Program-made: the position numbers and the translations under genes
The notes under the pieces: generated by a model
Databases searched by the model: none
The model's input: only the letters and a program-made list of their open reading frames with translations
Told to the model about the DNA's origin: nothing
In this document: positions 2,682-36,252 of the stretch, in pieces
Position numbering within the stretch: the first letter of the stretch is position 1
Layout: each line of letters begins with the position of its first letter
DNA from: Kiritimatiellota bacterium
GTDB lineage: Bacteria > Verrucomicrobiota > Kiritimatiellia > JAAZAB01
Length of the DNA stretch: 64,000 nt
Reading direction: 5' to 3'
Assembly: GCA_026398415.1 (NCBI GenBank)
Contig: JAPLSY010000084.1
Location: 94,709-158,708 of the forward strand

Positions 2682-5600
2682 ATGGCTACGCGACAGAATT
2701 CACCAGCAAAGATCAGAGTCATGCACTTCACATTCTGCCTTGCGGCCCTCTTGTGCCTCCAACTGTTGTCTTCCTGTACCGTTGATAAACATGCCACGGC
2801 CGGCCCTGGTTTTCCTCAGCCGGGCTCTGCAATTTTATCGATTTCTTTCGATCCGGCGCCTCGCGGCATTGCGGTTCAAACCGCTCCCGGCAAAACCGGC
2901 CTGGCCGCGGTGATTACGGACAAACCCCTGCTCTTTGCCTTGCCCGCGGAGTTCAATCCGGAAGCCAGCGCCATCGAGATGTGGATCCGGCCGGACTTCG
3001 CCAGTGCGGACAACGCCTACCACCGTTTTTTTGACATTCGCGGCGATGGGAAGACAAGCATCTCCATGTACAAGAGCGGCGCGGGTGGCGGCAACGGGCT
3101 GTTCATGGTCCTCTGCGACCGGAACGGTGTCAGGTTCGAGGCCGGGGCGAACGAAGGCCGGGACTATTCCTGGAAGCCGGGCGAGTGGCACCACCTGGCC
3201 GGAAGCTGGGATAGCGCCGGCGGTTTCGTGTCCTTGTTCTTTGACGGGCGCGAAGTGGCCCCGCGGCGCGGGACGCCGTTCAGCCTGGGCACCATGCAGC
3301 CCATCATGTCCGTCGGGGCGAACCTGTGGAACGGCGAGGTCTGCCCGGGACTCATCGACGAGATCCGGCTCTACCGCGAACCGGCCACTTTGGGAACGTT
3401 GGTGCGCACCGGCACCGCGGCGGCCGACCAAAGCCCCTGGAAACTGATTGACGGCGACACGGGCCAATCCGACGCGTGGTCCGGAACCGGTAGCTCTAAT
3501 TTTGTCGAGGTCGTCCTCCCACGCCCTGTGCAACTGGCGATGGTGCGGGTTTACCCAGGTGCTCTCGCCTACTGGGAGATGCCCAGCACAGAGTGCTCAC
3601 CGCGCCAGATCGAAGTTCAGGGATGGATTGGCAACCGGTGGCAGACCCTCGGCGCGGCCGTGCCCGTGCCGCGGTACGACGGCAAGCCGGGTCCCTTCTA
3701 CGTCGTGGCACAGTTCAAACCCCGGCAGGTCAGCCGGTTCCGGGTTGTAATGCCTTCGACCTATGACGAGGGGCGGCGTGTCGGGCGTGCGGACAGCGCA
3801 CCGCTGCCGACGGCAGAGCGCGAACTGGTTGTCCGCGAAATTGAGTGGCTGACCGCGGAGCAACTGGCGGACAACAATAGGCAGCTTCGCCAGTTGCAAT
3901 CACGGTTGCAGGACGAACTGGCAATGTGGACCAAAAGGTTTGCGGTGCAGACCCCGTCGCCGCTTGACCGGGCTGTCCGGGACCTGTATGGCGCCCAACT
4001 CGCGCAGTTCACCGAGCGGCTGGCAAAACTGCCGGCGGGCGGTGCGCAGGAACTCAGCGAGTTCGAGACGGAATGGAACCAGGTTGGGCAGTGGCTGACT
4101 CCCTGGCATGCGTGCGCAGTCCGCAACGGCAGCCAGACGGTCATCCCGGGGATGAACGATAAATCGGTTGGAGAACTGCTGCTTTCCGTGGACCCTGGCG
4201 CCACGCCGCACCAGTCGTATCCGGCCAAGGTGCATCTTGACCTGCGCCTTGCCGAGAGCGTCTTCGGACACCCGGTCAACCCTTACGAAATGCAGGTCGT
4301 GGAGGTGGACGCAAAGGGGATTCTTTTGCCTCAGCAGTCCGGCGCTGACGGAGTACGCCGATTCCTTTGCAATTCCCGGTTCGACCGCCTCGATCCGAAA
4401 CGTGGTGTCCTGGCCTGGACAATGCGGGACCGCAGTGCCCGGCAGTTTGTCGTGCGCTTCCTGCCGCCGCCGGAACGCCCGCCCGAGAAAGGCATGTGCA
4501 CGCTCGGCGACGGCGACCACTTCTACTTCGATAATGTGGCCAACGATTCCCTGCCGGCGGATCTCTATACCTGTACGTTCCTCGACTGGAATGGCGACGG
4601 CAGGCAGGATGCGGTTGCCGGCCGCTGGACCGACTATTGCCACGTGTGCTTGAACATAGGGACAACCAACAAACCGCAGTTCTCGGAACGCGAGCATTGG
4701 CTCGTGCGCGATACCACCGGCCTGCCGATCGCCGCCGCAACAGACCGTCACGGCACTGCTTTTTCCATGGCCAGCCCAATCGACTTCGATGGTGACGGCC
4801 GCGTGGACATTTTCCTGCGCGGGTACTTACGTGAGGGATACATGTTCTATCGCAACCTCGGCCCGGTGACGTTTCCGGTCATGGCGCCGAGTCGCATTCC
4901 GCGCGGCCTGCCCAAGGGCAAGGGTATGGCCGCCTTCGGTGACGTGAACGGCGATGGGATTGCCGATGCCATCGTGGTGGTGTCCGGCAAGGATTCCGAG
5001 CGGCTGAGCCTGCACGAAGGCACGGGGTTGGATCCGGACGGAACTCCGGTCTTCAAACCGGGCCGGGTGCTCGATGCCGCCATTGTCCGGAATCCTGACG
5101 TTGAGCGTGAAGGCAGGATGACGACTCTGGCGCTTGCCGACCTTGACGCGGACGGCGACCTGGACCTGACCGTCTGCGTGCCGCCACACGTCTGGCTGTA
5201 TGAGAACACCGGCGACAAGACGCATTTCATTCTGGCGCCGGGCCGTCAGCTCAAGATTGGCGACGAGCCACTGGACGTCGGGTTCTACTTTCCATCCATA
5301 TCCTGGTCAGACTATGACGGCGATGGCGACTTGGACATGGTACTCGCGCCCGGGTGCAGAGTCTATCTCAACGAAGGCGACCGGCATCATCTCAAACTCG
5401 GCCGGTCCTTGTGCCCGTCATTGGCCCAGCAACAGGTGATGCCGCGCAGCAACCTGCGTGCGCAGGCTATGGTTGACTGGGATGGCGATGGCGACTTGGA
5501 CCACCTCTTGCCCGCCGCCTACTGTCCCGATCTCGAAGTGGCGGTCTGGCAGGACGGGCTCTTCCGCGAGACCAAAACCATTCCCGTGGACCCGAACCGG

Positions 5601-7061
5601 TTGGACTGGTACGGCTGCCCTGACCCCATCGAGTACAGAGCCCTCTATGCCGGCGTCGTGCCGGTTGACTGGGACGGCGATGGCGACCTCGATCTGATTA
5701 TGAACTCCGAGCATGGCTGGCGGTTCGGATACCTGCACTATTACGAGAACCTGGGCGGGAATCGGTTTGCGCCGGAAGTGGAATTGCGGCCGGGTGGCGG
5801 GACGTGCGACCACGTACAGTTTGTCCCGGGCAAGACCGACCAGGGTGCCCTGATCAACGACAAAACGTTTTTGGATTACCTCTCGTACCGCACCGCGGGC
5901 GCATTTGCACCGGCCGGCGGCAAGATCCAGTTCTGGTTCAAGCCGGAGTGGCCGGCGGCTGGCGAGAACCGGGAGCACTATTTCTTCCATACCGCGCCCA
6001 CTCCGGGAGCAAGCGGGGTTGCGGACGATGCCCTGATGCGCTATTACCAGGGAAACCTGTCCGATCTCAAGGTCCCGGCTCCATTTGCATTGTTCGTGAC
6101 TGCCCAGGGCCAACTTTGCTTCCAGGCCGAAGAGCGCCGCCTTGAGGCGCCAACGCGGGCATGGGACAACCGCGCGTGGTACCGAATCGAAGCGGCGTGG
6201 GGAACAAACGGGATGACGCTCGCCGTTGACGGCAAGACACTCGCATCCAGTCCGGAGCCTGTCCGGAACGTGCCGGTCGGCACGCGTATGCACATCGGCA
6301 GCCGTGCCTGGATGGGAGTACAGCGGGAACGCGAATACCCCAGCCGGTGGGCAGACCATCCGACTGGTTTTTCGTCGCCCGCAGGGGGCGTGCTGGACGA
6401 ATTCGAGATCCAGGATGCCGCGGGAAAAGCGCTGTTCACCCTTGCCTTTGACGGGAATGCGAACAGCGTGCAGGGTGTCTCCGGCAACCGGCTCAAGGTC
6501 GGCTACCGCTGCACGCCGGGTATTGCGGACATGAACGGGGACGGACTGCTCGATATGGTCATGCTGATCGCCGACGGCGGAAGGGGAAATGGTGGCGAGC
6601 CCGAATACGAAACGTGGAGAGAGGGCTGCCTCGTTCTTTTCCCGAATGTCGGCACGAAGACACGGCCACAACTGGGCCAAAGCGTCACGCTCATGCACAA
6701 GGACGGCAGTGCATTCCGGTGCCAAGCACGAACCATGGTCACACTGGTCGACTGGGACGAGGACGGGCTTATCGACATCATCACGTCGTCAAATAATAGT
6801 GGGTTTAGATATAATTCAACCGTGGACTTTTTCCGGAACGTGGGCACGCGTACCAATCCGGTCTTCGCGGCGCGCCAGCCGATGAACAAGCTGAACGATA
6901 TGCTGGACGCGTCCCACGACGTCAAGCTCAATGCCGTGGACCTGAACGGCGACGGGCATCTCGACCTGGTCACCTCCACCGATCCTGGCAAATGCGTGTT
7001 CTACCGGTCGTTCCTGGAAGAAGCGCCGGTCAAGGTGGCAATTGCGGAAATCCGGGAGTGA
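2682..7061 (+). CDS. Giant lipoprotein (1459 aa) with LamG-like, discoidin (F5/8 type C)-like and FG-GAP/VCBS beta-propeller repeats
   Basis: Signal peptide and lipobox (LLSSC). An N-terminal concanavalin/LamG-like segment is followed by a discoidin-like segment (KLIDGDTGQSDAWSG...). There are many 'DWDGDGDLD', 'DFDGDGRVD' and 'DLDADGDLD' Ca-binding FG-GAP motifs and a second LamG-like block. It is paralogous to 8291..12073. Confidence 0.6.
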   Translation: MATRQNSPAKIRVMHFTFCLAALLCLQLLSSCTVDKHATAGPGFPQPGSAILSISFDPAPRGIAVQTAPGKTGLAAVITDKPLLFALPAEFNPEASAIEMWIRPDFASADNAYHRFFDIRGDGKTSISMYKSGAGGGNGLFMVLCDRNGVRFEAGANEGRDYSWKPGEWHHLAGSWDSAGGFVSLFFDGREVAPRRGTPFSLGTMQPIMSVGANLWNGEVCPGLIDEIRLYREPATLGTLVRTGTAAADQSPWKLIDGDTGQSDAWSGTGSSNFVEVVLPRPVQLAMVRVYPGALAYWEMPSTECSPRQIEVQGWIGNRWQTLGAAVPVPRYDGKPGPFYVVAQFKPRQVSRFRVVMPSTYDEGRRVGRADSAPLPTAERELVVREIEWLTAEQLADNNRQLRQLQSRLQDELAMWTKRFAVQTPSPLDRAVRDLYGAQLAQFTERLAKLPAGGAQELSEFETEWNQVGQWLTPWHACAVRNGSQTVIPGMNDKSVGELLLSVDPGATPHQSYPAKVHLDLRLAESVFGHPVNPYEMQVVEVDAKGILLPQQSGADGVRRFLCNSRFDRLDPKRGVLAWTMRDRSARQFVVRFLPPPERPPEKGMCTLGDGDHFYFDNVANDSLPADLYTCTFLDWNGDGRQDAVAGRWTDYCHVCLNIGTTNKPQFSEREHWLVRDTTGLPIAAATDRHGTAFSMASPIDFDGDGRVDIFLRGYLREGYMFYRNLGPVTFPVMAPSRIPRGLPKGKGMAAFGDVNGDGIADAIVVVSGKDSERLSLHEGTGLDPDGTPVFKPGRVLDAAIVRNPDVEREGRMTTLALADLDADGDLDLTVCVPPHVWLYENTGDKTHFILAPGRQLKIGDEPLDVGFYFPSISWSDYDGDGDLDMVLAPGCRVYLNEGDRHHLKLGRSLCPSLAQQQVMPRSNLRAQAMVDWDGDGDLDHLLPAAYCPDLEVAVWQDGLFRETKTIPVDPNRLDWYGCPDPIEYRALYAGVVPVDWDGDGDLDLIMNSEHGWRFGYLHYYENLGGNRFAPEVELRPGGGTCDHVQFVPGKTDQGALINDKTFLDYLSYRTAGAFAPAGGKIQFWFKPEWPAAGENREHYFFHTAPTPGASGVADDALMRYYQGNLSDLKVPAPFALFVTAQGQLCFQAEERRLEAPTRAWDNRAWYRIEAAWGTNGMTLAVDGKTLASSPEPVRNVPVGTRMHIGSRAWMGVQREREYPSRWADHPTGFSSPAGGVLDEFEIQDAAGKALFTLAFDGNANSVQGVSGNRLKVGYRCTPGIADMNGDGLLDMVMLIADGGRGNGGEPEYETWREGCLVLFPNVGTKTRPQLGQSVTLMHKDGSAFRCQARTMVTLVDWDEDGLIDIITSSNNSGFRYNSTVDFFRNVGTRTNPVFAARQPMNKLNDMLDASHDVKLNAVDLNGDGHLDLVTSTDPGKCVFYRSFLEEAPVKVAIAEIRE

Positions 7062-7150
7062 TACGTACACATAGGAGCCGATGGCAAAAAAGGGCGACTT
7101 TAAGGCGTTCCTCACGGACGGATTGACGTTGCCAGGATCGAATATCAGCA

Positions 7151-8143
7151 ATGATCTCATCTCTCCAGTTGGCCAAGTTGTGCGGGGTATCGCAGGGCAC
7201 GGTGGACCGGGCCCTGCATACCCGTCTGGGGATCAATACGGCCACACAGGAAAAAATACTTAAAATAGCAAAGCACCATGGATATAAACCCAATCCCGCC
7301 GCACGGGAATTACTGGGCGGCAAGCGCACGCTGGTGGGCGCGCTGGCGCCGGCAAAGGGCAGTGTATTTTTCATGGACCTGATGAACGCGATTCGGCAGG
7401 TTCTAATCCGCGAGCGGTTCCGGTTTTATCTTTATTCATTCTCTGATGAGACCGATTTTTTCGAGGCCATGGACGATTTCGCCGCGCGGCGCTGTGCGGC
7501 CCTGGTGACCGTCCCACCGCGGGAAGGGCTCAAGCTGGCCACACGTCATACCACGAACCAGCCAATCATAACACTGCTTAGTCCCTGCCATGGTGCTTCG
7601 GTTTATTTTGTGGCACCCGACGAGGTGAACACTGGCCGGCAGGCCGTGGAATACCTGTGGCGCAAGGGGCATCGCCGCATCCTGCATTTAACCTATCATC
7701 GGGAAGCCACCGGAATCCATGATCGCGCCGAAGGCTACCGTCAGGCCATGCGCCGGCGGAACGCCGCCCCGGATGTTCGGAAAGTGGCGGATAACCTTGC
7801 CATCATGCGTGCCATCCGCGCTTATCGGCCGAGCGCCGTTTTTTGTCACAACGATTGGCTGGCCTTGAAAACGATCCGCGCTTTGAACCAGGCGGGCTTG
7901 CGGGTTCCGGAAGATATCTCCGTGCTCGGGGTGGACAACAGCCCCACGTTTGCCGATCTGTGTCCGGATATCAGCACTCTGCAATATCCCATGACCGCCG
8001 TGGCCGAACGCTGTCTGGCCATCATCCAGGGCGGCTTCGCCCAAAGCGGCTTCGCCGCCAGACCGGTCGGCCGCTTTGAGATCGTGGAACGCCAGACCGT
8101 TGGAAGGGTGCACCCGAGAGGAGTTGAACCTCCACGGCCGTGA
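7151..8143 (+). CDS. LacI family transcriptional regulator
   Basis: N-terminal HTH 'LAKLCGVSQGTVDRALH' followed by a periplasmic-binding-protein-like sugar-binding core. Length is about 330 aa. Confidence 0.75.
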   Translation: MISSLQLAKLCGVSQGTVDRALHTRLGINTATQEKILKIAKHHGYKPNPAARELLGGKRTLVGALAPAKGSVFFMDLMNAIRQVLIRERFRFYLYSFSDETDFFEAMDDFAARRCAALVTVPPREGLKLATRHTTNQPIITLLSPCHGASVYFVAPDEVNTGRQAVEYLWRKGHRRILHLTYHREATGIHDRAEGYRQAMRRRNAAPDVRKVADNLAIMRAIRAYRPSAVFCHNDWLALKTIRALNQAGLRVPEDISVLGVDNSPTFADLCPDISTLQYPMTAVAERCLAIIQGGFAQSGFAARPVGRFEIVERQTVGRVHPRGVEPPRP

Positions 8144-8192
8144 GGCCACTAGAACCTGAATCTAGCGTGTATGCCAATTTCACCACGGGTGC
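8109..8192 (-). tRNA. tRNA-Leu (anticodon CAG)
   Basis: Manual fold of the reverse complement: acceptor GCACCCG/CGGGTGC with discriminator A; anticodon stem CTAGA/TCTAG with loop TTCAGGT, giving anticodon CAG. There is a long variable arm (GGCC..GGCC), typical of Leu. The T-arm is GGAGG-TTCAACT-CCTCT. Length is 84 nt without CCA. Confidence 0.8.
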
Positions 8193-8290
8193 GTAAAACG
8201 CGAATACCATACCATGCATTGAACCCGTGTCAATAGTCCGATCAGGTACTCACTCCCCACCCTTCGCGCCTCTGCATACCATGAACGGTC

Positions 8291-11200
8291 TTAGAGACCC
8301 GGCTCGACGGCAACGACCCGCACACGCACGGGTTCCTCCTCCAGGAACGAGCGGTAGAAGACGCTCGTGCCCGGGTCGGTGGAGGTGACCAGAACTTCCT
8401 CGCCGTTGCCGTTCAGGTCCACGGCCTCCAGCTTGACATCGTGATGGGCGTTCAGCAGGCTGTTGAGCCGGTCCATGGGCTGGCGCGGACCGAAGACCGG
8501 CGCGGTCTTCGTTCCGGTATTCATGAAAAGGTCCACGGCTCGATTAAACTCCGCCATCTCGTAATTTTCCGTGGAGAAGATCAGGTCAATGCGTCCATCC
8601 CGGTCCCAATCCACCGGCGTGATCTTGGTGCGGATGTGACAACGGAAAGGCGTCCCGTCGGTATGCTTCAGGGGGATGCCTTCGCCCCAGCGGGGTTTGG
8701 CGGCCGTCCCGACGTTCGGGAACAGAACCAGCACGCCGTCTCCCCAATTGCGGTGCTCCGGTTTAGTCCCGCGGTTGCGGCGGCCATCGCTGATCATGGC
8801 CACCATGTCAATCAACCCGTCCCCGTTGAAATCGGCAAAGCCGGGAGTGCACCGGTACCCCAACTTGGTACGGTTCCCGGATTGGCCCTGAGCGGAGTCG
8901 GCATTCCCGTTGAAGGCGAGCGTGAACAGCGCCTGCCCCTTCGCGTCACGGATTTCGAAATCGTCCAGCACACCGTCGGCGGGCGACGAAAAATCGGTCG
9001 GATGCAATATCCAGCGGCCCGGGTGTTCGCGCTCGCGCTGAACCCCCATCCACGCGCGGCTGCCCACCCACATGCGGCGGCCAACCGGCACGGCAGTTAC
9101 CGGCTCAGTAGACTCAGCCAAGCGCCGGCCATCCACCTCTACCAAACAACCTTCCTTACCCCAGCGCGTCTCCACGCGATGCCAGGAACCAGTTTTCCAA
9201 TCCAGCACGGGGGTTTCGGCACCCGTCTTGCCCATCTGCAAGCACAGGGTCCCGGCCTTTGTCTTGAACAGCGCGAAGGGTTTGGGCAGAACAAGATCGG
9301 ACTTGATGTCCGTATAGTAATGTTCCAAATCCCGGGCGCTGATGCCTGCCGCCGCGGGCGTGGGCGCGGTATAGAAGAAATAGTGCTCCTTGCCGTCGGC
9401 CGCATCCCAGTCGGGCTGGAACCAGAACGACAAGCTGCCCCCCGCGGGGTCCAGGCTGTCCTTGGTGTGGTAGGACAGGAAATCCAGGAAGGTCTGGGCG
9501 TCCACATGGGCGCCCTTGCCGTTCTTGCCCTCGACAAAACGCACGTAATCGCAGGTGGCCATGGGCCGCCATTCCACTTCCGGGGCAAACCCGTTCGTTC
9601 CCAGGTTCTCGTAATAGTGGATATAGCCGAACCGCCAGGAATGTTCCGAGGTCGCCGCCAAGTCCAGATCGCCGTCATTGTCGAAGTCCACCAGTTGGAC
9701 ATTCCCATACATCGCATAGTATTCGGGCGGATCGGGGCACCCGTACCAATCTTTCTTCTCGGGATCCACGTTGACGACGAAACTACGGCGGAAGAAGCCG
9801 TCCTGCCACTCATTCACCTCCAGGTCCGGGCAGGAAAATGCCATGAGCACGTGATCGAAGTCGCCGTCCTTGTCGAAGTCCACCATGTCAAAAGCCCGTA
9901 GTCCAGCCCGCTCCACGCGCCGCTGCTGTTTGAGCACCGGGCTGACCAACTGCCCCAGGCGCAGGGTCTTGGCATCTCCCTCGTTGAGGTACACCTGTAC
10001 CCCGGTGGATTTGACCAGATCCAGGTCGCCGTCCCGGTCGTAGTCCGACCAGGTAATCGAGACGTAGAAATAACCCACGTCCAGCGGAACGCCCTTGCGC
10101 TCGACCCGCCGTCCCTCGGCAAACTTGGGCGCCTTCGGCGTGCCAATGTTCTCATAAAACCACACGTAGGGGGGAACCACGAGGAACACGTCCAGGTCGC
10201 CGTCCGCGTCGATGTCGGCGAGGGCCGGTGCGGGCTGGCAACTCGTCCGATCAGACGAGTCGGCGAGTGGCGAGGAAATCCCCAACGGCCGGGCATCCGC
10301 GAACCGGGGTGCCCCGTCCTTGCCCAGGCCGCGGCCGGGGTTAAGCCGGAGAGAACAGACATTGCTCGAGATGGAAGTGACCACGGCATCGGCCTGCCCG
10401 TCGCCGTCCAAGTCCCCGAAGGCCATCTTGCCGCACGCCAGGTTGACCGGCACGGTCGGGGCAGCCACTACGGGAAAATCGTTGGGACCCAGATTACGAT
10501 AGAACAAAGGTCTGACGCCATGATAGCCGCCCATGAAAAGATCCACCCGTCCGTCACCATCGAAGTCCACCGGCTGCACGACCGAGAAGGCCTGACTATG
10601 ATGGTCGGCCAAGGCCGCGATGGGGGCGCCGGTAACGTCGCGCACCAACCAGTGTTCGCGTTCGCTGAAGACCGGCTTATCCTTCGTGCCGATGTTTTTC
10701 CAGAAGTGGCAATAGTCGGTCCAGCATCCCGTGATGACATCCTGCCGGCCATCCCCATCCCAGTCCAGAAACGCCGCCGACCAGATATTCCCGGACAAGG
10801 TACCATCCTGGGCCGTATCAAAGTAGAAGCCATCCCCATCGCCCACCGTCATCATACCCTTTTCCGGCGGAGCATCGGGGCGCGGGCCGAACTCCACCAC
10901 ATAACGCGTGTACGACTGGTCCGGCATTGTCCAAATGAGGAATCCCCGGAGCGGGGAGATGCGCTCGAATCGGCTGGCGCATAGATTGCGCTCAGTACCC
11001 TTGCGATTGGGATGGATGTCGGCCAGGTGTTTGCCATCCGGTGCGAGGGCATAGACCTGCATGACATAGGGGTCCACGGGCCGGCCCCAGAGGGCCTCCA
11101 GTACGCGCAGATCCAGTGCGCACGATGCGGGGTAGGACTTGTGCGGGGTCTTGCCCGGGTCCACGCTGAGTTCCAGCCGGCCGACCGGCGAGCCAATGGC

Positions 11201-12073
11201 CGAAACTTCCACCTTGCCACGATGGTCAGCCATCAACAACCGCCAAGGCATCAGCCACGCTTTCCAGTCTTTCCCCCGGCCCGCCACCAACGGCCGCCAA
11301 GGATCTAACCATGCCTTCAGGTCTTCCCACCGGCGAGCCGTCTCGGCATACTGGTCTTCCGCCCCCGGCCGCGCCAAGGTCTCCACCTGATTGCCGAGTT
11401 GCCGTAATTCCTCGGCATACAGTGTCTTCAGGGTCCGGCCCGCAGCCGCCCCTCGCTCACCGCTGAGTGCCTGCCCCCACCAACGGATTTCCTGCCCAAC
11501 GGTGCACTGCCACGCCTTCATCCGTACGCGGGCCGCGGCCACGTCGGCGACGCTGTACCACTGGATCTCCCGGATAGTTGCGACCCGGTCCTCCAAGGGT
11601 TCGTCGGGCGACCCGGGATGATCTATCCGGTAGCCCCCGTCATGCAACGCAGTAATGTACAGTCGAAAGCGCTTGAGGGTTACCGGTGGCACGTCCACCG
11701 TTACGAAGAACGGACCTGATCCGGTCGTGTATCGGGGCACCGACACCGGCGGAGCCAAATCGCGCCAAGCATCCTGGACCCAACCCTGTAAAGTGAATTC
11801 CTTAGGCGACCCCTCGGTGCTGGGTAAGGCCGCATAAGCCCGGTTGCCCGGATGAACCACCACGCGAGCCAATTCCACCGGCTCGGGCAACTCCACCTCC
11901 ACCCATACCGGACAGCCAAAACCATCCCACACGCTGGCATCGCTGGTATCCCCGTCAATTACGCGTTGAACGTTTTCTACGGGATGCTTGGCCGTCTGCG
12001 AGGCCGAGGCTATCCCGGAAACCATCGCCCATCCGATCAGCGTCAATATTCCAATGAGCAGTCGTGTTTGCAT
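8291..12073 (-). CDS. Giant secreted protein (1260 aa) with discoidin-like, FG-GAP/VCBS and LamG-like domains; paralog of 2682..7061
   Basis: Signal peptide MQTRLLIGILTLIGWAMVSGIASA. Domain order matches the paralog, and long stretches are near-identical (EKGMMTVGDGDGFYFD, LDWDGDGRQD, CWTDYCH, VDLNGNG..LVTSTDPG..VFYRSFLEE). Confidence 0.6.
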   Translation of the reverse strand: MQTRLLIGILTLIGWAMVSGIASASQTAKHPVENVQRVIDGDTSDASVWDGFGCPVWVEVELPEPVELARVVVHPGNRAYAALPSTEGSPKEFTLQGWVQDAWRDLAPPVSVPRYTTGSGPFFVTVDVPPVTLKRFRLYITALHDGGYRIDHPGSPDEPLEDRVATIREIQWYSVADVAAARVRMKAWQCTVGQEIRWWGQALSGERGAAAGRTLKTLYAEELRQLGNQVETLARPGAEDQYAETARRWEDLKAWLDPWRPLVAGRGKDWKAWLMPWRLLMADHRGKVEVSAIGSPVGRLELSVDPGKTPHKSYPASCALDLRVLEALWGRPVDPYVMQVYALAPDGKHLADIHPNRKGTERNLCASRFERISPLRGFLIWTMPDQSYTRYVVEFGPRPDAPPEKGMMTVGDGDGFYFDTAQDGTLSGNIWSAAFLDWDGDGRQDVITGCWTDYCHFWKNIGTKDKPVFSEREHWLVRDVTGAPIAALADHHSQAFSVVQPVDFDGDGRVDLFMGGYHGVRPLFYRNLGPNDFPVVAAPTVPVNLACGKMAFGDLDGDGQADAVVTSISSNVCSLRLNPGRGLGKDGAPRFADARPLGISSPLADSSDRTSCQPAPALADIDADGDLDVFLVVPPYVWFYENIGTPKAPKFAEGRRVERKGVPLDVGYFYVSITWSDYDRDGDLDLVKSTGVQVYLNEGDAKTLRLGQLVSPVLKQQRRVERAGLRAFDMVDFDKDGDFDHVLMAFSCPDLEVNEWQDGFFRRSFVVNVDPEKKDWYGCPDPPEYYAMYGNVQLVDFDNDGDLDLAATSEHSWRFGYIHYYENLGTNGFAPEVEWRPMATCDYVRFVEGKNGKGAHVDAQTFLDFLSYHTKDSLDPAGGSLSFWFQPDWDAADGKEHYFFYTAPTPAAAGISARDLEHYYTDIKSDLVLPKPFALFKTKAGTLCLQMGKTGAETPVLDWKTGSWHRVETRWGKEGCLVEVDGRRLAESTEPVTAVPVGRRMWVGSRAWMGVQREREHPGRWILHPTDFSSPADGVLDDFEIRDAKGQALFTLAFNGNADSAQGQSGNRTKLGYRCTPGFADFNGDGLIDMVAMISDGRRNRGTKPEHRNWGDGVLVLFPNVGTAAKPRWGEGIPLKHTDGTPFRCHIRTKITPVDWDRDGRIDLIFSTENYEMAEFNRAVDLFMNTGTKTAPVFGPRQPMDRLNSLLNAHHDVKLEAVDLNGNGEEVLVTSTDPGTSVFYRSFLEEEPVRVRVVAVEPGL

Positions 12074-12117
12074 CGGTCGTCTCCCCTCGCTTTGTTTTTA
12101 GAACAATGATACGCGCC

Positions 12118-13122
12118 TCACTGGTTCTGCAGGACGTCCAGCATGGCGGCAATGTTTTCAGGCTTGGCATCGCCGGGAATGGCATGCGCGGGCGCCGCAA
12201 TGTAGCCGCCCGATTCGCCAACGACCTTCAGCAGTTCGCGGACTTCCTTCTTGACCTGCGCCACCGTCCCGAACGGCAAAAGGCGCTGGGTGCTGATCCC
12301 GCCGAAAAACGTGAGGTGCCGGCCGAATTGCTTTTTCATCGTCACAGGGTCCATGACTTCCGGCTGGAAGGGATTAAAGACATCCAACCCGGCTTCGATC
12401 AGGTCGGGGAACACTTCCTGGACCCTGCCGCAGGAATGAATGAAGACAAATTTTTTATGCGCCTTGACGGCCTGGTACATCTGCCTGATCCGCGGATAGA
12501 TAAATTGACGCCAGAGTTCGGGTCCCATGATCAAGCCGGTCTGCTGACCCCAGTCGTCGCCGAATTCCATGGCGTCAATATCCAGGCGGCAGGTATTTTC
12601 GATCACGCGCAAGTTAAAGGCCAGGATCCGGTCCAGCAGGGTCTGGATAAAATCGGGATCAGTGACCATGGCCATGAGCACATTTTCCATGCCGGCCAGG
12701 GTCCAGGCCCGTTCGAACAGGCTGAACCCGAGATTGCCAACAACGAACCGTTCGCCTTTGCCGGCGGTCAGGGAGTCCCGGAGCGCCTGGTAACGCGAGG
12801 GATCTTCCGGGTCCGGCATGCGATACGTGCGCACATTGTCCGGCGTCACGCAGGTATTGCAGACCACGCCAATATCCTTATCCACGGAACGGTTCCACTG
12901 GACACCGAATTGGTCCTCCCAGATATCCGGCGCCGTTTCCCGCCACGCGTTGGCCGGCTCCATGCCGCACATCGTCAGGCAATTCTCCAGGGATTTCAGC
13001 CGGGCAACACCGGCGTAAGCCTGGAATCGCGCCAGGGCTTTTTGCGTAAAGTCAATATGGTAAGGGACCTGATCCGGTTGCTGATGCCGAAGGGTGGCCA
13101 AGACACGCTCGCGGTTGGTCAT
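12118..13122 (-). CDS. Uroporphyrinogen decarboxylase (URO-D) family protein (MtaA/CmuA-like methyltransferase or decarboxylase)
   Basis: 334 aa with a (beta/alpha)8-like composition. It resembles URO-D/MtaA family members (N-terminal 'RERVLATLRHQQPDQVPY', C-terminal 'GGYIAAPAHAIP'). Confidence 0.5.
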   Translation of the reverse strand: MTNRERVLATLRHQQPDQVPYHIDFTQKALARFQAYAGVARLKSLENCLTMCGMEPANAWRETAPDIWEDQFGVQWNRSVDKDIGVVCNTCVTPDNVRTYRMPDPEDPSRYQALRDSLTAGKGERFVVGNLGFSLFERAWTLAGMENVLMAMVTDPDFIQTLLDRILAFNLRVIENTCRLDIDAMEFGDDWGQQTGLIMGPELWRQFIYPRIRQMYQAVKAHKKFVFIHSCGRVQEVFPDLIEAGLDVFNPFQPEVMDPVTMKKQFGRHLTFFGGISTQRLLPFGTVAQVKKEVRELLKVVGESGGYIAAPAHAIPGDAKPENIAAMLDVLQNQ

Positions 13123-13154
13123 GATGCTGTTCCTTTAATAATAGCCCCGCCGGG

Positions 13155-14102
13155 TCAGGGCTTTTCATCCGACGACGGCTGCATAAACTGACCTACCATT
13201 CCACCCGTGCCCATTTTCTTTTTGGTCTTGTCCACGACGACTTTGTCTTCCACGGTTGTTGCCACCGGCGTCACCGGCGGCGGCACCGGCGCCGACACCA
13301 CCGTCTCGGTCCCTTCCGGGACCGTGATTTGCCCATTGGGCTGTTGCGCCAGGCTGGCCCGGCCCCGGGCGCCCGTATAGGTCCTGGCAAACAACTGCAC
13401 GCCGAATGGCGTAAAGGCCGTATGTACAAACCCCATGCCCATGGTTTGAAACAGAACGTGCACATTGCCGACCTCATCCACCTTAAACTCGACTGGCCGC
13501 ACCCGGATGACGCGTCCCAGATTGAACAAGCCATACACGTTCTTATCGGCATCTTCGATCCGCAGATAAATATTCTCGATGCCGTCTTTCGGAAAATAGG
13601 AGAGGATATAGGTGCGCATAGCGTGCGCATCGCCGGGAACCCCGACCGTCAGGCGCTGGAATTCGAAACCGCTGACTACTTCCAGCGTCGTCTCCTGCGA
13701 GACATAGTGAGCGCCGTTCAGCTCCACATCGGCGCGTATTTTATACAGCCCCTGGCTCCGAATGGCATACAGGTGGGGCACATTGAATCCAAACGTGCGG
13801 ACTTCGCCCGGCATAATCTTCACATCGCTCACCAGGGGGGCATCATCGCGCCGGGGAATGATCCGGCCACCGTCGTGTTCGACATCGAGCCAGAACCGGA
13901 CCGGACCACGGATAGAATCCATCGTCAGCATCTGGCCGCTGTTGTTTTGAATTACGACCTTGGCAATGACATCTTCGTACAGGAGCGCCTTGGCCGACGG
14001 CAGCGTCAGGGTGATCGCAAGCTGGGCCGCTACCCAGGCCGGAAGGGCCATCAGACCGATCACCGCGCCAAGTCCCATTTTCCATTGCCGGTTGATTGTC
14101 AT
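13155..14102 (-). CDS. Secreted hypothetical protein
   Basis: Signal peptide (MGLGAVIGLMALPAWVAAQ) and normal amino-acid composition. The + strand ORF opposite it is R/H/Q-rich antisense noise. It is tightly linked upstream of the URO-D gene. Confidence 0.4.
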   Translation of the reverse strand: MTINRQWKMGLGAVIGLMALPAWVAAQLAITLTLPSAKALLYEDVIAKVVIQNNSGQMLTMDSIRGPVRFWLDVEHDGGRIIPRRDDAPLVSDVKIMPGEVRTFGFNVPHLYAIRSQGLYKIRADVELNGAHYVSQETTLEVVSGFEFQRLTVGVPGDAHAMRTYILSYFPKDGIENIYLRIEDADKNVYGLFNLGRVIRVRPVEFKVDEVGNVHVLFQTMGMGFVHTAFTPFGVQLFARTYTGARGRASLAQQPNGQITVPEGTETVVSAPVPPPVTPVATTVEDKVVVDKTKKKMGTGGMVGQFMQPSSDEKP

Positions 14103-24269: not shown

Positions 24270-25409
24270 TTAGAATTGATGAACGCGGTCTTTGACGGCC
24301 TGGGTTTCCGCAGTCCCCACCCGACCGTGCGCATGCAGGGCGATATTATATAGCACACCGATCTCCAGCAGGGAAATGATCAGGCTGGAGCCGCCCGCGC
24401 TGATGAACGGCAGGGGCAATCCCTTGGTCGGCAGCAGACCGATGACCACCCCGATATTGATGACGGCCTGCAGGGTGATCATCAGGGTGATGCCAAACGC
24501 CAGTATCCGCCCGAACGTATCCGGCGCCCGCAGGCTGATCCGCAAGCCGCAGACAAAAAGCCCGGCAAACATCAGCACCACCGCCAGGGTGGCCGCGGCG
24601 CCCAATTCCTCGCCGATGATGGCGAAAATAAAATCAGTGTGCGCCTCCGGCAAATAGTAGTGCTTCTGGATACTGCCGCCCAGCCCCACGCCCATGGGGC
24701 CGCCGGCAATGAAGGCGTTGATTGCGCTTAGCAGTTGGAAGGAATAGGTCTGCGCATACTGTTCCGGATTTAAAAACGCCACGATCCGGTGCATGCGCAC
24801 GGGATCGCGCATGACGGCCACCGCGAACCCGCAGAAGCCGATGACGGCGAACACGGCCAGATAGGCCGCCCGCGTCCCACCCGCGTACAGGATCGCCAGC
24901 CCCACCACGCCGCAGAGCAGAGCCGTGCCAAAATCGGGCTCGATGAAGACCAGGCCGGCCACCAGCCCAATAATGACCAGCGGCGCTACGGCGCCCCGCC
25001 AGAACTCGCGCACATGCCATTTCTCGCGCGCCAGCCACCACGCCAAACCCAGGATCAGCGAAAACTTGGCCAACTCCGAGGGCTGGACACTGAGCATCCC
25101 GAGATGGAACCAGCGCCGGCTGCCGCCAATCCTGGAGCCGATGCCGGGAACCAGCACCAGCGCCAGGAGAGCAACCGACGCCACGAGGCAAACCAGCGCC
25201 AGGGGACGCCAGCGATGGTAGTCAATTTTGCAGGCCAAACCGCCCACGATCACGGCCATCAGAAGCCACAACGCCTGGCGCTTGACGAAATAATTCGGAT
25301 CATCGTAAAGCGCCACGGCCTTGATGCCACTGGTGCTGGCCAGCATAACGATGCCCAGGGCCAGCAGGAGCAGGACCAGAAGAATTAAAACGGTGGGGGT
25401 TTTCCACAT
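24270..25409 (-). CDS. ftsW: Peptidoglycan glycosyltransferase FtsW (SEDS family)
   Basis: SEDS core motifs (PSEL, GGSSL, 10 TM). It terminates the dcw-type cluster. Confidence 0.8.
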   Translation of the reverse strand: MWKTPTVLILLVLLLLALGIVMLASTSGIKAVALYDDPNYFVKRQALWLLMAVIVGGLACKIDYHRWRPLALVCLVASVALLALVLVPGIGSRIGGSRRWFHLGMLSVQPSELAKFSLILGLAWWLAREKWHVREFWRGAVAPLVIIGLVAGLVFIEPDFGTALLCGVVGLAILYAGGTRAAYLAVFAVIGFCGFAVAVMRDPVRMHRIVAFLNPEQYAQTYSFQLLSAINAFIAGGPMGVGLGGSIQKHYYLPEAHTDFIFAIIGEELGAAATLAVVLMFAGLFVCGLRISLRAPDTFGRILAFGITLMITLQAVINIGVVIGLLPTKGLPLPFISAGGSSLIISLLEIGVLYNIALHAHGRVGTAETQAVKDRVHQF

Positions 25410-25454
25410 TACCCGTCTCGGTCATCCGGGCACACTAAACGCGACCCGATTCGA

Positions 25455-25631
25455 TCATTGCTTCAATTTCCTGATAATGTGCCGTGCGAGATGTTCTTTG
25501 ATTTCGCGGTGACGCGGAATGGGCTGGCAAACGCCTGTCTGGAGATTTTGATACCAATCATGCCGTCCGCCGTGACGAATAAAAACGCAACCTGTCTTTT
25601 CAAGCTCACGAATCAGGTCATTTCTTTTCAT
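25455..25631 (-). CDS. hicA: Type II toxin HicA (YcfA-like mRNA interferase), 58 aa
   Basis: Manual translation of the minus strand gives MKRNDLIRELEKTGCVFIRHGGRHDWYQNLQTGVCQPIPRHREIKEHLARHIIRKLKQ. This matches the HicA pattern (G-x-H...P-x-H-x-E-I). The ORF is below the track's 60-aa cut-off. Its ATG overlaps the hicB stop (ATGA). Confidence 0.65.
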   Translation of the reverse strand: MKRNDLIRELEKTGCVFIRHGGRHDWYQNLQTGVCQPIPRHREIKEHLARHIIRKLKQ

Positions 25632-25819
25632 GCGAGTTGCAATTCCCCAACGTGCTTAACATTGGGTATCGCATTACTTGTGAGATCGGCATAGATATCC
25701 TTGAGATTTTCCTGTAATTCCTCAAAGGTCTCGCCCTGGGTCTGGTAATCCGGATATTCTTCCAGATAACCAAGCCACATGTCATCATCCTGCCAATAAA
25801 CATATCGAATGGAATCCAT
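25628..25819 (-). CDS. hicB: Type II antitoxin HicB-like (UPF0150 family), 63 aa
   Basis: 'YWQDDDMWLGYLEEYPDYQTQGETFEELQENLKD' is the hallmark of the short HicB/UPF0150 fold. It is translationally coupled to hicA. Local GC is ~47% against ~62% for the genome. Confidence 0.6.
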   Translation of the reverse strand: MDSIRYVYWQDDDMWLGYLEEYPDYQTQGETFEELQENLKDIYADLTSNAIPNVKHVGELQLA

Positions 25820-25881
25820 TTTTGTAGAACACTCAATAAATACGCCACAAGGAATTAATTGATTATGACCAAAGGCCCGCT

Positions 25882-26955
25882 TCAGGGAATCTTCAGCCGT
25901 TGCCCCACCTTAACCGTGCGATTGGCGCCAAGCTGATTGAGCTCGACGATTTCATCCACGGTCACCGCATACAGCTTGGCAACGGAATTGATATCCTCGT
26001 TCGGCTGAACAATGTGCGTAATGCCCGAATTGGCGATGGGCTTGGCAGGCACGGGCGCAGTGACCGGTGTCGCCGACGCGGCTGGTGCCGCCGGAGCAGG
26101 CTCTGCCGATGGTGCAGGTGCAGCAGCCGGTGCCGCCGACGCGGCCGGTGCCGCGGCTGGTGTAGCCGGCGCAGGCTCTGCCGATGGCGCGGGCGCAGCA
26201 GCTGGTGCCGCCGGTGCCGCCGGTGCGGCCGGTGCCGCCGGTGCGGCCGGTGCCGCCGGTGCGGCCGCAGAGGCAACCGTGGCTTCCGGAATGATCAGCT
26301 TCTGCCCGACTTTCAATTTGTCGCCCTGAAGTTTATTGGCTTCCCGCAAGGCACTGATTTTCGTGCCGCATTTCTTCGCAATCTTAGAAAGACTGTCGCC
26401 CTTCGCAACCACATACTCCTTACCGGCAACAGGCGCGGACACGGCTTCCGCTGTCGCAGGCGCCAACGACTCCGCCGGTGCGGCCACTTCGGCCGGAGCG
26501 GCAGTCTCAACTGCTTTGGCCTTTGCAGCGTGCTTGGCCGGCGCGGCCGACGCGGCTTTAATTTTCAGGTGTCCGGGCAGCATCAACTTCTGGCCGACGC
26601 GCAATTTATTTGGATCGGACAGCTTGTTCAGATCAGCAATCTCGCTCCGGGAAATTCCATACTGTTTGGCAATGCCCCCGATAGAGTCGCCGGACCGCAC
26701 GACATATTCCGTCGTTTCCGTGGCCTTAGTTAATTCCCTGGACTCGGACTTGGCGACCGGCGCCTTTTCCACTTGTTTCGGCGGCGGGTAATTTACGGCT
26801 TCCTTGGTCGTGGGCGGCATGGGCGGAGTTGTCGCTGCCGGAGGCGGGGTACCCGTTCGGGACGTGGTGCCGCACCCCTGGATAAAGAACAAAGCCCCGA
26901 GGGCGGCGCAGTGCAACATAACAACAACGGTAATTAACAAAGCTGACGTTTTCAT
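25882..26955 (-). CDS. LysM-domain peptidoglycan-binding lipoprotein with Pro/Ala-rich repeats
   Basis: Signal and lipobox (FIQGCG). Three LysM motifs (YVVRSGDSIGGIAKQYGIS..; YVVAKGDSLSKIAKKCGTK..; HIVQPNEDINSVAKLYAVT..) are separated by (PAAPAA)n low-complexity linkers. SD GGAGGAG precedes the Met at 26955. Confidence 0.7.
   Translation of the reverse strand: MKTSALLITVVVMLHCAALGALFFIQGCGTTSRTGTPPPAATTPPMPPTTKEAVNYPPPKQVEKAPVAKSESRELTKATETTEYVVRSGDSIGGIAKQYGISRSEIADLNKLSDPNKLRVGQKLMLPGHLKIKAASAAPAKHAAKAKAVETAAPAEVAAPAESLAPATAEAVSAPVAGKEYVVAKGDSLSKIAKKCGTKISALREANKLQGDKLKVGQKLIIPEATVASAAAPAAPAAPAAPAAPAAPAAPAAAPAPSAEPAPATPAAAPAASAAPAAAPAPSAEPAPAAPAASATPVTAPVPAKPIANSGITHIVQPNEDINSVAKLYAVTVDEIVELNQLGANRTVKVGQRLKIP
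26075..26270. repeat. Coding 6/12-nt tandem repeat (GCCGGTGCCGCCGGTGCGGCC)n encoding a (PAAPAA)n linker
   Basis: Direct reading: near-perfect 12-mer repeats over 26203-26268 and degenerate copies upstream. They lie inside the LysM gene. Confidence 0.8.
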
Positions 26956-26988
26956 TACTCCTCCTATGATGTTCAATGAGACCTGTTG

Positions 26989-27022
26989 TTTCCGCCGGAG
27001 GCGGATCCGCCTCCGGCGGAAA
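26989..27022. promoter_or_regulatory. Perfect 34-bp palindrome (TTTCCGCCGGAGGCG-GATC-CGCCTCCGGCGGAAA) about 35 nt upstream of the LysM gene start and downstream of murD
   Basis: Read directly. No U-tract on either side, so it is an operator or RNA stem rather than a canonical intrinsic terminator. Confidence 0.4.
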
Positions 27023-27117
27023 ATTCCTATGCCTTGAATAAACTACTTGCAAATATCCATCATCGCCCCGGCGGTGTCAAGTTTTTTTTCAACGGCTTTT
27101 TCAGCGGCCACCACAGC

Positions 27118-28464
27118 TTATGACAGCGCGCGAGTCGCGCTTATAAAACATTCGCCGCGTTCCTCAAAACTGCGAAACTGGTCGAAGCTGGCACAGGCGG
27201 GGGAAAGTAAAATCGTATCGCCCGGCCTGGCCTCCCGCCAAGCCTGCGCCACGGCCTGTGCCAGCGTTCCGCCCATCACGCAGGGCACCGTTCCGCGCCA
27301 GGCCGCAGCCATGGCTTCGGCCGCCCGGCCAATCAGGTAAACAGTCGCCACTTTTTCCGCCAGCAGTTCACGGGCCGGCTCATAGGATTCATGCTTGGGT
27401 AGCCCCCCGGCAATCAAACGGATCGGCCGTGGGGTCATGCACAGTGCCGCCAGCATGGCCGCCAGATTCGTGGCCTTGGAATCATTCACAAACCGAATGC
27501 CGCGCACCGCACCGACATTCTGCATGCGATGCGGCAGGGACTGGAAGACGCTCGCGGCCACCTCCAGAAAACGTCCCTCCACGCCGCAGGCCGAGAGCGC
27601 GGCGGCGGCCGCGGCGGCGGTCAGGCCCATGATCGCGTTAGCGAACAGCGTGCCACGTAATTCGATCCTTTCCCGGCCAAGCGAATTGTGAATCGCACCG
27701 GACTGATAAAAGAATTCTGCCGCCGGGCACACGCCCGTAGTCGGGCATACGCCCGCCGCAATCCAGCGATTGGGCGAACCGGCCAGGGAGCGAATCTCCG
27801 GCAGGATGTTCCGGTCCGTAATACCGGTATCCGCCGGCGTCATGCGCGTAAATAAGCGGGACTTGATCTGCCGGTAGGTTTGGAAATCCCCATGGCGGTC
27901 CAGATGATTCGGCGTCACGTTCAGCAAGACCCCCACGTCGGGACGGAAGGCCTGCACGGTTTCCAATTGGAAGGAACTGACTTCCAGCACCAGCCAGTCC
28001 AGTGAACGACGTTCTCCGACCACGGCGGAGACCGGCGGGCCGTAATTCCCGGCAATCGCCACCGAACAACCGGCTTGCGCCAGCGCTTCGGCGCACAGTT
28101 TAACGAGCGTGCTTTTACCATTCGAGCCGCTGATCGCCAACACCCGACAAGCGCAGCGGCTCCAGCCCAGTTCCAGTTCCGAAACCACCGGAATGCCCCG
28201 GGCCATAACGGACTTCACCGTGTCGGATGAGGTCGGAATGCCGGGACTGACAATGGCGATTTCGAAATCGCCCGGCGGCGGCGCCGTAACGCCCAGGCAC
28301 ACCTTGGCGCCCAGGGCCTGCAAAGTGGCAGCACACCGACGCAGGTCTTCCGAATCTCCGCGATCCATGACAACAACCTGCGTGCCCTCAGCCAGCAGGA
28401 GCCGGGCGGCGGCTTCCCCGCTGGCGGCAAGGCCGAGCACGAGGGCTGTTTGGTAATGTTGCAT
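27118..28464 (-). CDS. murD: UDP-N-acetylmuramoylalanine--D-glutamate ligase
   Basis: N-terminal Rossmann-like 'LVLGLAASGEAAARLLLAEGTQVVVMD', the Mur ligase central domain 'GSNGKST', and its position after mraY. Confidence 0.85.
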   Translation of the reverse strand: MQHYQTALVLGLAASGEAAARLLLAEGTQVVVMDRGDSEDLRRCAATLQALGAKVCLGVTAPPPGDFEIAIVSPGIPTSSDTVKSVMARGIPVVSELELGWSRCACRVLAISGSNGKSTLVKLCAEALAQAGCSVAIAGNYGPPVSAVVGERRSLDWLVLEVSSFQLETVQAFRPDVGVLLNVTPNHLDRHGDFQTYRQIKSRLFTRMTPADTGITDRNILPEIRSLAGSPNRWIAAGVCPTTGVCPAAEFFYQSGAIHNSLGRERIELRGTLFANAIMGLTAAAAAAALSACGVEGRFLEVAASVFQSLPHRMQNVGAVRGIRFVNDSKATNLAAMLAALCMTPRPIRLIAGGLPKHESYEPARELLAEKVATVYLIGRAAEAMAAAWRGTVPCVMGGTLAQAVAQAWREARPGDTILLSPACASFDQFRSFEERGECFISATRALS

Positions 28465-28465
28465 A

Positions 28466-28672
28466 TAACTGTTTAGGCTGTAGGCTGAAGACTGTTAGCG
28501 TATTTCAGAAAAACTGACACCCTTTTGCGCAGATCTTCTGGTAGGGCGAATCCGTCGGCTGACGGATGAACTGTCCTTTGTTTCACGGCTCAGCCTGAGG
28601 TTTACCCACCTTTGGCGGCGCCTTAGGCGACCAGGGCTTTGCCCTACCTACAGGCTAACAGCCTACAGCCTG
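28466..28672. repeat. Inverted-repeat-flanked ~200-bp element in the murD-mraY spacer (MITE/REP-like)
   Basis: The left arm AGGCTGTAGGCTG..CTGTTAGC (28473-28499) is the reverse complement of the right arm GCTAACAGCCTACAGCCT (28648-28670). The internal hairpin is CCGTCGGCTGACGG. The same CTACAGCC motif recurs at 61622-61655. Confidence 0.45.
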
Positions 28673-28704
28673 TCCACCTTGTGAATAGTTACGCGACTCA
28701 TAGA

Positions 28705-29829: not shown

Positions 29830-30011
29830 AACTATCTTAATATTAAACCGTTATACGATTGACGGTCTTCATTCATTTGGTGTAAGAATGACTATTCGAA
29901 CACCCAATATCCAACAAGGAATGGCCAATTTCCAAATGAATGAGTCTGTATTCCGTTGGGTATTTGGGTGTTGAGTGTTGGTTATTGGATATTCAACTGC
30001 TCTTTTTTGAT

Positions 30012-32874: not shown

Positions 32875-32899
32875 GATGGTCGCGCTTTTTCTCCGTTCT

Positions 32900-33062: not shown

Positions 33063-33077
33063 ATTCACAACTTACAA

Positions 33078-36172: not shown

Positions 36173-36252
36173 GCGCGCCCTTTCTCCAGGCACCGGCCCG
36201 GCCCGCCGTCGTCCGGCATTAGCCGGGCTATGGCGGGCAGGCCGAAGCATCC

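Follow-up and report, generated by a model that had tools for sequence, protein, structure and literature searches.

Two divergent paralogs of a small family of exported FG-GAP/LamG proteins, with a possible role in glycan targeting, in a Kiritimatiellota bacterium

Two genes for large exported proteins, here called A and B, converge on contig JAPLSY010000084.1 of a Kiritimatiellota metagenome-assembled genome (MAG; assembly GCA_026398415.1), within the stretch of 64,000 nucleotides that was analysed (the window). Between them lie a LacI-family regulator gene and a tRNA-Leu(CAG) gene, at the positions given for them in a preliminary description of this DNA and now confirmed by the open reading frame (ORF) call, Pfam, ARAGORN and Rfam. 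That description had the pair convergent (tail-to-tail) in its title, which is correct for genes on the + and − strands respectively, and head-to-head in its text, which is not. It is proposed here that A and B are secreted glycan-targeting proteins of a new small family, one that may well be catalytic, a proposal that seems to us evenly poised. An exact-sequence look-up identifies A as MCX6993593, the LacI protein as MCX6993594 and B as MCX6993595, and annotation of the window covers genes in its first part (1-29 kb) and ten ORFs between 29 and 47 kb. The central features are as follows.

2682-7061, + strand: gene for protein A, 1459 aa (ORF call)
7151-8143, + strand: LacI-family regulator gene, 330 aa
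8107-8192, − strand: tRNA-Leu, anticodon CAG (ARAGORN; Rfam tRNA, 50.6 bits)
8291-12073, − strand: gene for protein B, 1260 aa (ORF call)

The domain order is common to A and B, with one additional LamG domain at the N-terminus of A, and is given below by residue and by window position.

Protein A, + strand
2682-2777: signal peptide, residues 1-32
2844-3395: N-terminal LamG, residues ~55-238
3399-3854: discoidin-like jelly-roll, residues ~240-391
3855-4121: three-helix linker, residues ~392-480
4170-4460: beta-sandwich, residues ~497-593
4509-5801: FG-GAP calcium repeats 1-7, residues ~610-1040
5802-6485: inserted LamG, residues ~1041-1268
6486-7058: FG-GAP repeats 8-10, residues ~1269-1459
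Protein B, − strand
12002-12073: signal peptide, residues 1-24
11579-12004: discoidin-like module, residues ~24-165
11189-11578: helical linker, residues ~166-295
10874-11188: beta-sandwich, residues ~296-400
9557-10873: FG-GAP calcium repeats 1-7, residues ~401-839
8876-9556: inserted LamG, residues ~840-1066
8294-8875: FG-GAP repeats 8-10, residues ~1067-1260

Both proteins carry export signals, that of A ending in a lipobox (LSSC), so that A is a predicted lipoprotein, and that of B in a type-I site (ASA/SQ). The FG-GAP propeller repeats first proposed for the pair are present in both at Pfam scores well over the cut-offs, FG-GAP_3 (PF13517; cut-off 26.9) reaching 109 bits in A and 126 in B, and FG-GAP (PF01839; cut-off 22.1) 40 and 45 bits. 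With the Dx[DN]xDG loops these scores place A and B in the FG-GAP/VCBS calcium-blade superfamily. Each protein has ten such motifs, seven before and three after the LamG insert (DWDGDGRQD and DFDGDGRVD are examples), the tenth of B being degenerate (DLNGNGEEV), and from these motifs both proteins are predicted to bind calcium, as the same motif does in integrin, a fungal lectin and the polysaccharide lyase family 11 (PL11) lyase (PMC3123361). Weak Pfam matches to TcdB_toxin_midN, at 25-28 bits, span only ~22 residues of the FG-GAP motif.

The other modules called at the outset, LamG and discoidin, held up in part. In A, Laminin_G_3 (PF13385) matches residues 91-234 at 66.9 bits (cut-off 27.6) and an AlphaFold2 model of this N-terminal LamG is a beta-sandwich with a predicted local distance difference test score (pLDDT) above 90. 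B has no N-terminal LamG, its sole LamG being the internal insert of ~225 residues; Pfam does not detect the insert of either protein, and it is by hhalign that the inserts of A and B are homologous to the N-terminal LamG (probability 98.4%, E 9e-15). The discoidin (CBM32-like) call is weak by Pfam, F5_F8_type_C (PF00754) scoring 22.6 bits in B, under the cut-off of 28.2, with no match in A. The region is, however, a jelly-roll in the AlphaFold2 model of A, and among relatives PF00754 scores 25 bits in P0028, clears the cut-off in P0037 at 31.5 bits, and is on record for P0005. Two AlphaFold2 models were built from the family alignment. That of A residues 30-640 (pLDDT 82) has the LamG sandwich, the jelly-roll, a three-helix bundle and a second beta-sandwich, while that of B residues 296-1260 (pLDDT 79, predicted template modelling score 0.70) is all-beta and runs from a sandwich through four-strand propeller units and a sandwich-type domain to further propeller units. 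For A and B, NCBIfam and PADLOC returned nothing, and Pfam nothing beyond the repeat, LamG and discoidin types and the TcdB matches.

The family to which A and B belong is small. Among 5.8 billion proteins a word-indexed search brought up no more than ~14 relatives of full length, the same set by sequence and by profile, all from MAGs or metagenomes and labelled Kiritimatiellota or Lentisphaerota. In an exhaustive profile search of 1.84 billion representatives ~17 proteins, all metagenomic, match the whole 961-position core in one stretch, and below them come only generic multi-repeat FG-GAP giants. Further copies came from scans of genomes and metagenomes, in MAGs bearing the labels Pirellulales, Pirellulaceae, Phycisphaerae and Victivallales, and with them a distant branch at 30% identity in a Bacillota MAG. 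The family is restricted to uncultured glycan-degrading bacteria, going by MAG labels of Kiritimatiellota, Lentisphaerota, Pirellulales and Phycisphaerae, with the distant branch in Bacillota. No family protein record carries a functional name, the literature on FG-GAP with Kiritimatiellota or with polysaccharide lyases held no characterisation of this family, and as judged from sequence the FG-GAP and LamG superfamilies are the only defined groups to which it belongs.

Members come in four architectures: that of A, LamG-discoidin-core; that of B, discoidin-core; the core alone, at 1016 aa; and core-discoidin, in P0037 and P0044. In alignments and models the constant element appears as a core of a beta-sandwich and ten FG-GAP repeats, with a LamG inserted between repeats 7 and 8, around which modules of the lectin and carbohydrate-binding module (CBM) type vary; the discoidin-like module is N-terminal in most members and C-terminal in P0037 and P0044, and the N-terminal LamG may be present or absent. 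Carbohydrate-active enzymes are usually laid out in this way, with modules shuffled round a core that stays constant. Outside the calcium motifs a set of polar residues is invariant across sixteen members at 25-30% identity (C484, D486, E489, Y494, E515, W518, R519, R720, E721, Y778, R779, R853, H916 and D938, in B296-based numbering), and these sit in the family-specific motifs GCPDxxE, E(H)xWRFGY, REY and YRxxP together with a conserved R, H and D. Two variants of the core may be recorded here. At L006 / L007 (10001-13053) two ORFs, of 844 and 173 aa, make up the family gene, and the inserted LamG is missing from it (no counterpart of B residues 845-1087); this gene is a pseudogene or else a variant naturally free of LamG. 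On two contigs of one Pirellulales MAG (L011 and L012) there are two family copies, each consisting of the core alone (~1016-1036 aa) with neither discoidin-like nor helical modules.

Comparison with proteins of known structure gave little that is specific. Single-sequence searches of the PDB with A and B returned only integrin alpha-M at E > 0.5, or nothing, and the family profile run against all PDB chains at E <= 10 returned only CRTAC1 (E 0.14) and no PL11 chain. Foldseek with the core gives generic propellers at template modelling scores (TM) below 0.35, these being DDB1, GH181 sialidase, UmbA4, TcB, Bap1, the Psathyrella velutina lectin (PVL) and CRTAC1. The N-terminal part of A gives domain 4 of AbnA (the arabinan-binding domain of a glycoside hydrolase (GH) family 43 arabinanase) at TM 0.68, CBM40 and clostridial toxin Hc domains.

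What recurs around the family genes in other genomes is related to sugars. Over a 10-kb reach clear carbohydrate-related genes occur at 12 of the 16 distinct loci encoding family members, a tally of our own with no background control. In L008, L010 and L014 (three in tandem) the family gene has BNR_2 propeller genes right beside it, and L005 has another nearby; sodium:solute symporter (SSF) genes follow within 24 nt of the family gene in the distant members L023 and L024, and one lies nearby in L008; and lyase-like genes (Hepar_II_III_C, Alginate_lyase, PcRGLX) are found in L002, L005 and L006. Other neighbours include GH2, GH28, GH38, GH123, GH67N-like, NPCBM and F5_F8_type_C proteins, sugar ABC binding proteins and AraC regulators. 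The pattern points to sugars, in a manner supportive and not decisive, because the count has no background control and the genomes are rich in such genes. A reading of the BNR neighbours as sialidases was set aside, since NCBIfam gave only weak sub-threshold matches to its BNR glycosylhydrolase model and a link to sialic acid is not established. Directly upstream of the distant family members stand proteins with a prepilin-type N-terminal cleavage/methylation domain (L023:8505-9263 and L024:8122-9978), the ORF call of the second fusing the prepilin-type protein with a GFO/IDH/MocA oxidoreductase in what may be two genes.

A and B are true paralogs, co-linear over 1248 residues aligned by BLASTP at 50% identity, which bears out the shared domain order first claimed for them; the long near-identical stretches claimed with it do not exist. 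A protein-guided codon alignment gives 51% amino-acid, 57% nucleotide and 43% third-codon-position identity, no identical run exceeds 13 aa or 21 nt, and the best inverted-repeat arms found by a repeat finder are of 310 nt and 219 nt, both 73% identical. In a bootstrapped neighbour-joining tree of 965 core columns A groups at 100% with L008, from a Lentisphaerae RIFOXYA12 MAG and 67% identical to A over its full length, and B groups at 100% with P0002, the two clades being sisters at 92%. As A and B fall in separate well-supported clades, their sequences date the duplication as an old event that precedes the split of several lineages, unless one copy was horizontally acquired, and in either case not as a recent local one.

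Further B-like proteins lie on other contigs in the same accession block, P0002 (MCX6993001, 23 kb contig) at 85% identity to B, P0174 (MCX6993289, partial, 52 kb contig) at 91% and P0175 (MCX6994205.1, 206 kb contig) at 88%. Going by that accession block these apparently belong to the same MAG as A and B, in which the family would be expanded and dispersed, with at least five copies. P0175 has the signal peptide of B, then an N-terminal LamG, then B sequence, and on that comparison B looks as though it arose by clean in-frame deletion of the LamG.

Around this pair the window has a set of smaller features.

999-1012: perfect 14-bp palindrome CGTGTAGCTACACG, ~115 nt upstream of the beta-helix gene
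1129-2559, + strand: gene for a parallel beta-helix protein, 477 aa, secreted
12118-13122, − strand: URO-D-family (MtaA-like) gene, 334 aa
13155-14102, − strand: gene for a secreted protein with no function assigned, 315 aa
14290-16218, + strand: hybrid PAS histidine kinase / response-regulator gene (Pfam PAS, HisKA, HATPase_c, Response_reg)

The beta-helix protein, a neighbour that the preliminary description had called correctly, has a signal peptide, repeated NCxIxxN / GGGI units of the right-handed parallel beta-helix type and a C-terminal choice-of-anchor Q domain (NCBIfam choice_anch_Q, 31.3 bits, cut-off 25; DUF5123 reaches 23.6 bits, under its cut-off), and has no PDB sequence match. 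It is co-directional with A at a gap of 122 nt, as is A with the LacI gene at 89 nt, no terminator is predicted between A and LacI, and the three genes possibly form one transcription unit. The LacI protein belongs to the LacI/GalR family by its N-terminal LacI helix-turn-helix (PF00356, 35 bits, cut-off 27) and its periplasmic-binding-protein-like effector domain (Peripla_BP_3, PF13377, 104 bits; Peripla_BP_1); its NCBI record (MCX6993594.1) is named LacI family regulator, and NCBIfam LacI-type models match it far below every equivalog cut-off. The palindrome occurs just once as an exact sequence in the window and is a candidate operator, by way of which the LacI-family protein may repress the unit of beta-helix gene, A and LacI. 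A search for it with 3 mismatches matched no more than in shuffled sequence, and the other intergenic gaps, those near B included, yielded no palindrome like it.

The last 37 nt of the LacI ORF (8107-8143) overlap the tRNA-Leu gene on the opposite strand, a tail past the conserved domain, in that the Peripla_BP_3 match ends at residue 316. The tRNA gene shares the strand of B, from whose end it lies 98 nt downstream, and a promoter-like site of its own stands at 8233-8206 (TTGACA-16-TATGGT with a TG extension, 10 of 12 positions matched). A tRNA-linked island was considered and rejected, as no partial tRNA copy was found elsewhere in the window and the only compositional difference found is a modest rise in G+C in A and B. 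On the − strand the gaps from the 315-aa gene to the URO-D-like gene and from that to B are only 32 nt and 44 nt, and so B probably lies in a separate three-gene operon, 315-aa protein then URO-D-like then B, from which the kinase gene is divergent. The 315-aa protein has a signal peptide visible in translation and no match in Pfam, NCBIfam, PADLOC or the PDB sequences. The URO-D-like protein (MtaA-like, corrinoid methyltransferase fold) matches Pfam URO-D (1e-29) and PDB 4ay7, a methylcobalamin:CoM methyltransferase (E 2.6e-5), and a homolog at 30% identity lies 6.6 kb from the distant family member L017 (Bacillota MAG). URO-D or MTTB genes stand within 10 kb of family members at 5 of the 16 loci (window 12118-13122 (−), L008:17102-18223, L017:8896-10008, L003:1-120 and L002:12170-13651), a recurrence that could reflect sugar O-demethylation or chance. 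The ORF at 12064-13191 (+, 375 aa) overlaps the URO-D-like gene, has no family match and is probably a spurious shadow.

No close-family locus elsewhere has a LacI gene, a tRNA or a beta-helix homolog; only L024, which belongs to the distant subfamily, has a LacI gene, at 4 kb from its family member. Neither two family copies in one locus nor a tRNA is found at any of the other loci, and homologs of the LacI protein, the beta-helix protein, the 315-aa protein or the kinase are absent from the related loci examined. The placement of A and B around LacI and the tRNA is peculiar to this genome. Past ~14 kb most of what was annotated in the window is housekeeping (the hybrid histidine kinase, IMPDH, Mla, FtsW, Mur ligases, MraY, FtsI, MraW), with a division and cell-wall (dcw) cluster at 24270-36256 (−) of MraW, an FtsI-like penicillin-binding protein, MurE, MurF, MraY, MurD and FtsW and a LysM protein within it. 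At the left edge (65-817) the window cuts the C-terminal end of a glycyl-radical enzyme (PFL-like and Gly_radical domains), which fits an anaerobic lifestyle, and at 42812-44818 a 668-aa protein combines the two recently defined domains DUF7657 and DUF7654 and adjoins a 617-aa protein without family match.

In outline, then, the idea of a polysaccharide-targeting pair survives, by way of export, lectin- or CBM-type modules and sugar neighbours at most loci and not by way of the LacI and tRNA arrangement. Counted in favour of A and B as secreted glycan-targeting proteins of a new family are the export signals, the calcium motifs, the homology of the LamG inserts, the CBM-like N-terminal LamG, the invariant polar residues and the sugar neighbourhoods. 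The likeliest scheme would have A on the cell surface, as a predicted lipoprotein, and B secreted, the accessory modules capturing a complex and probably acidic polysaccharide and the propeller-plus-LamG core then processing it, probably by cleavage, with products taken up in other genomes through the adjacent sodium:solute symporters or ABC systems. Several points weigh on the other side. Searches of Pfam, NCBIfam and PDB sequences found no catalytic domain and no CAZy-type family, and the generic propellers returned by Foldseek include the non-enzymes DDB1, Bap1, PVL lectin and CRTAC1. The invariant residues lie in low-confidence stretches of the model (pLDDT 42-69) and could equally form a structural LamG-propeller interface. 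Glycan-degrading genomes of the Planctomycetota-Verrucomicrobiota-Chlamydiota (PVC) group are dense in carbohydrate genes in any case, which tempers a neighbourhood signal counted without a background control, and within the window it is only the beta-helix gene and LacI that hint at sugars.

A bolder and distinctly tentative proposal is that the core, with its invariant C484, E489, E515, R519, R720, E721, Y778, R779, R853, H916 and D938, represents a new family of carbohydrate-active enzymes, lyases or hydrolases that work outside the cell and depend on calcium, in anaerobic PVC-type glycan degraders. Its active site would be at the propeller-LamG junction, its substrate an acidic sugar polymer, and its product would enter by way of the adjacent sodium:solute symporters. 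Kiritimatiellota, Lentisphaerota and Planctomycetota degrade recalcitrant and often sulfated or acidic marine and gut polysaccharides, and their genomes hold many giant secreted proteins to which no function is assigned. Were the core catalytic it would add a new family of carbohydrate-active enzymes built on an unusual fold, in which a LamG breaks into a calcium-blade propeller; were it only a binder, the A/B family would be one more lectin-like surface protein.

That second outcome has a definite form, in which A and B bind glycans without catalysis, as adhesins or matrix proteins attached to the cell's own exopolymer or to a substrate surface in the manner of the Bap1/RbmC "double-sided tape" or of PVL lectin. 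We consider this possible, if on balance doubtful. It stays alive because Bap1 and RbmC, in which an exopolysaccharide-binding propeller is united with lectin domains, show that a calcium propeller with lectin domains can be a pure polysaccharide binder (PMC10102183), and Bap1 (6mlt) and PVL lectin (2bwm, 2bwr) are among the Foldseek matches, although at the low TM of 0.17-0.31. The lack of a detectable catalytic domain suits it, as does the apparent dispersal of the family over the MAG in at least five copies, a combination by which the preliminary description would have known generic adhesin-like surface proteins, had lectin-type domains not also been present. In several genomes the family gene stands, as if in an operon, next to genes for solute symporters, oxidoreductases and BNR propellers, which fits release and uptake better than adhesion, and the shuffling of CBM-type accessory modules round a constant core and the many invariant charged residues outside the calcium sites likewise speak for the glycan-processing alternative. 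A function unrelated to glycans, whether in protein-protein recognition, in cell-cell contact or as a toxin-associated propeller (TcB-like, UmbA-like), strikes us as improbable. The TcB propeller, UmbA4 and DDB1 do appear among the Foldseek matches and the TcdB_toxin_midN matches nod the same way, but the latter cover just a short piece of the FG-GAP motif, no locus examined has toxin, Rhs, TcA or TcC neighbours, PADLOC has no matches, and the accessory modules are of lectin type.

Two further explanations take the local gene order at face value. In one, A and B are PL11-like propeller lyases, or similar, of a polysaccharide-utilisation locus run by the intervening LacI together with the beta-helix protein, which we think very unlikely. 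The family likeness of FG-GAP to the calcium-blade propeller of PL11 YesW (PMC3123361) speaks for it, together with the tight co-directional run of beta-helix gene, A and LacI and the unique palindrome in front. Yet no lyase domain of PL11 or any other kind is found by Pfam (E <= 0.01), and no PL11 protein is in the Foldseek top 50 or, as said, among the PDB chains that the family profile finds at E <= 10. B probably lies in a separate transcription unit that includes the URO-D-like gene, and no palindrome like that one stands near it. A LacI-controlled conserved locus is contradicted by the synteny of the related loci, there being no conserved co-location, no transporter among the annotated genes of the window locus, and a lone palindrome only before the beta-helix gene. 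In the other explanation, put forward at the outset, the pair is a recent inverted duplication through which recombination could invert the LacI-tRNA segment, and this is already effectively refuted. Homologous genes do lie inverted and 1.2 kb apart, with weak inverted-repeat arms. With such low identity and a longest exact match of 21 nt, however, homologous recombination would have very little to act on; A and B fall in different fully supported clades, tRNA-derived repeats are absent, and no recombinase gene is among the annotated genes, which cover 1-29 kb and ten of the ORFs between 29 and 47 kb. No significance attaches to the arrangement as an inversion substrate.

Among known systems the PL11 rhamnogalacturonan lyase of Bacillus subtilis (YesW/YesX) is like A and B in being a secreted bacterial propeller whose Dx[DN]xDG calcium blades are related to FG-GAP, and it acts on an acidic plant polysaccharide (PMC3123361). 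It has eight uninterrupted blades, as against ten repeats split 7+3 by a LamG of ~225 residues in A and B, and there is no detectable sequence relationship, no place among the top fold matches and no pectin gene context. Bap1 and RbmC of Vibrio cholerae likewise join a secreted calcium-type propeller, which binds polysaccharide, to lectin-fold domains. These have eight blades and beta-prism lectins and lack discoidin or helical modules, whereas A and B have LamG and show no beta-prism or Bap1-type match in Pfam or PDB sequences; TM to 6mlt is 0.12-0.17, and the gene context of the A/B family is one of sugar uptake and catabolism and not of a biofilm matrix cluster. With integrin alpha, PVL and CRTAC1/ASPIC the likeness is in the FG-GAP/FG-GAP_3 repeats and the calcium-blade motif, PVL and CRTAC1 being among the fold matches. 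Those propellers are single, seven- or eight-bladed and without an inserted LamG, and the motifs GCPDxxE, EHxWRFGY, REY and YRxxP of the A/B family fall outside the FG-GAP definition. The lectin-winged sialidases (Vibrio cholerae neuraminidase, Trypanosoma cruzi trans-sialidase and pneumococcal NanB) are built on a six-bladed BNR/Asp-box propeller with an arginine triad, in contrast to the FG-GAP calcium blades of A and B, which have no BNR motifs and reach TM values below 0.25 with them; they share with A and B the joining of a propeller to concanavalin-like lectin domains, and all three are in the Foldseek lists.

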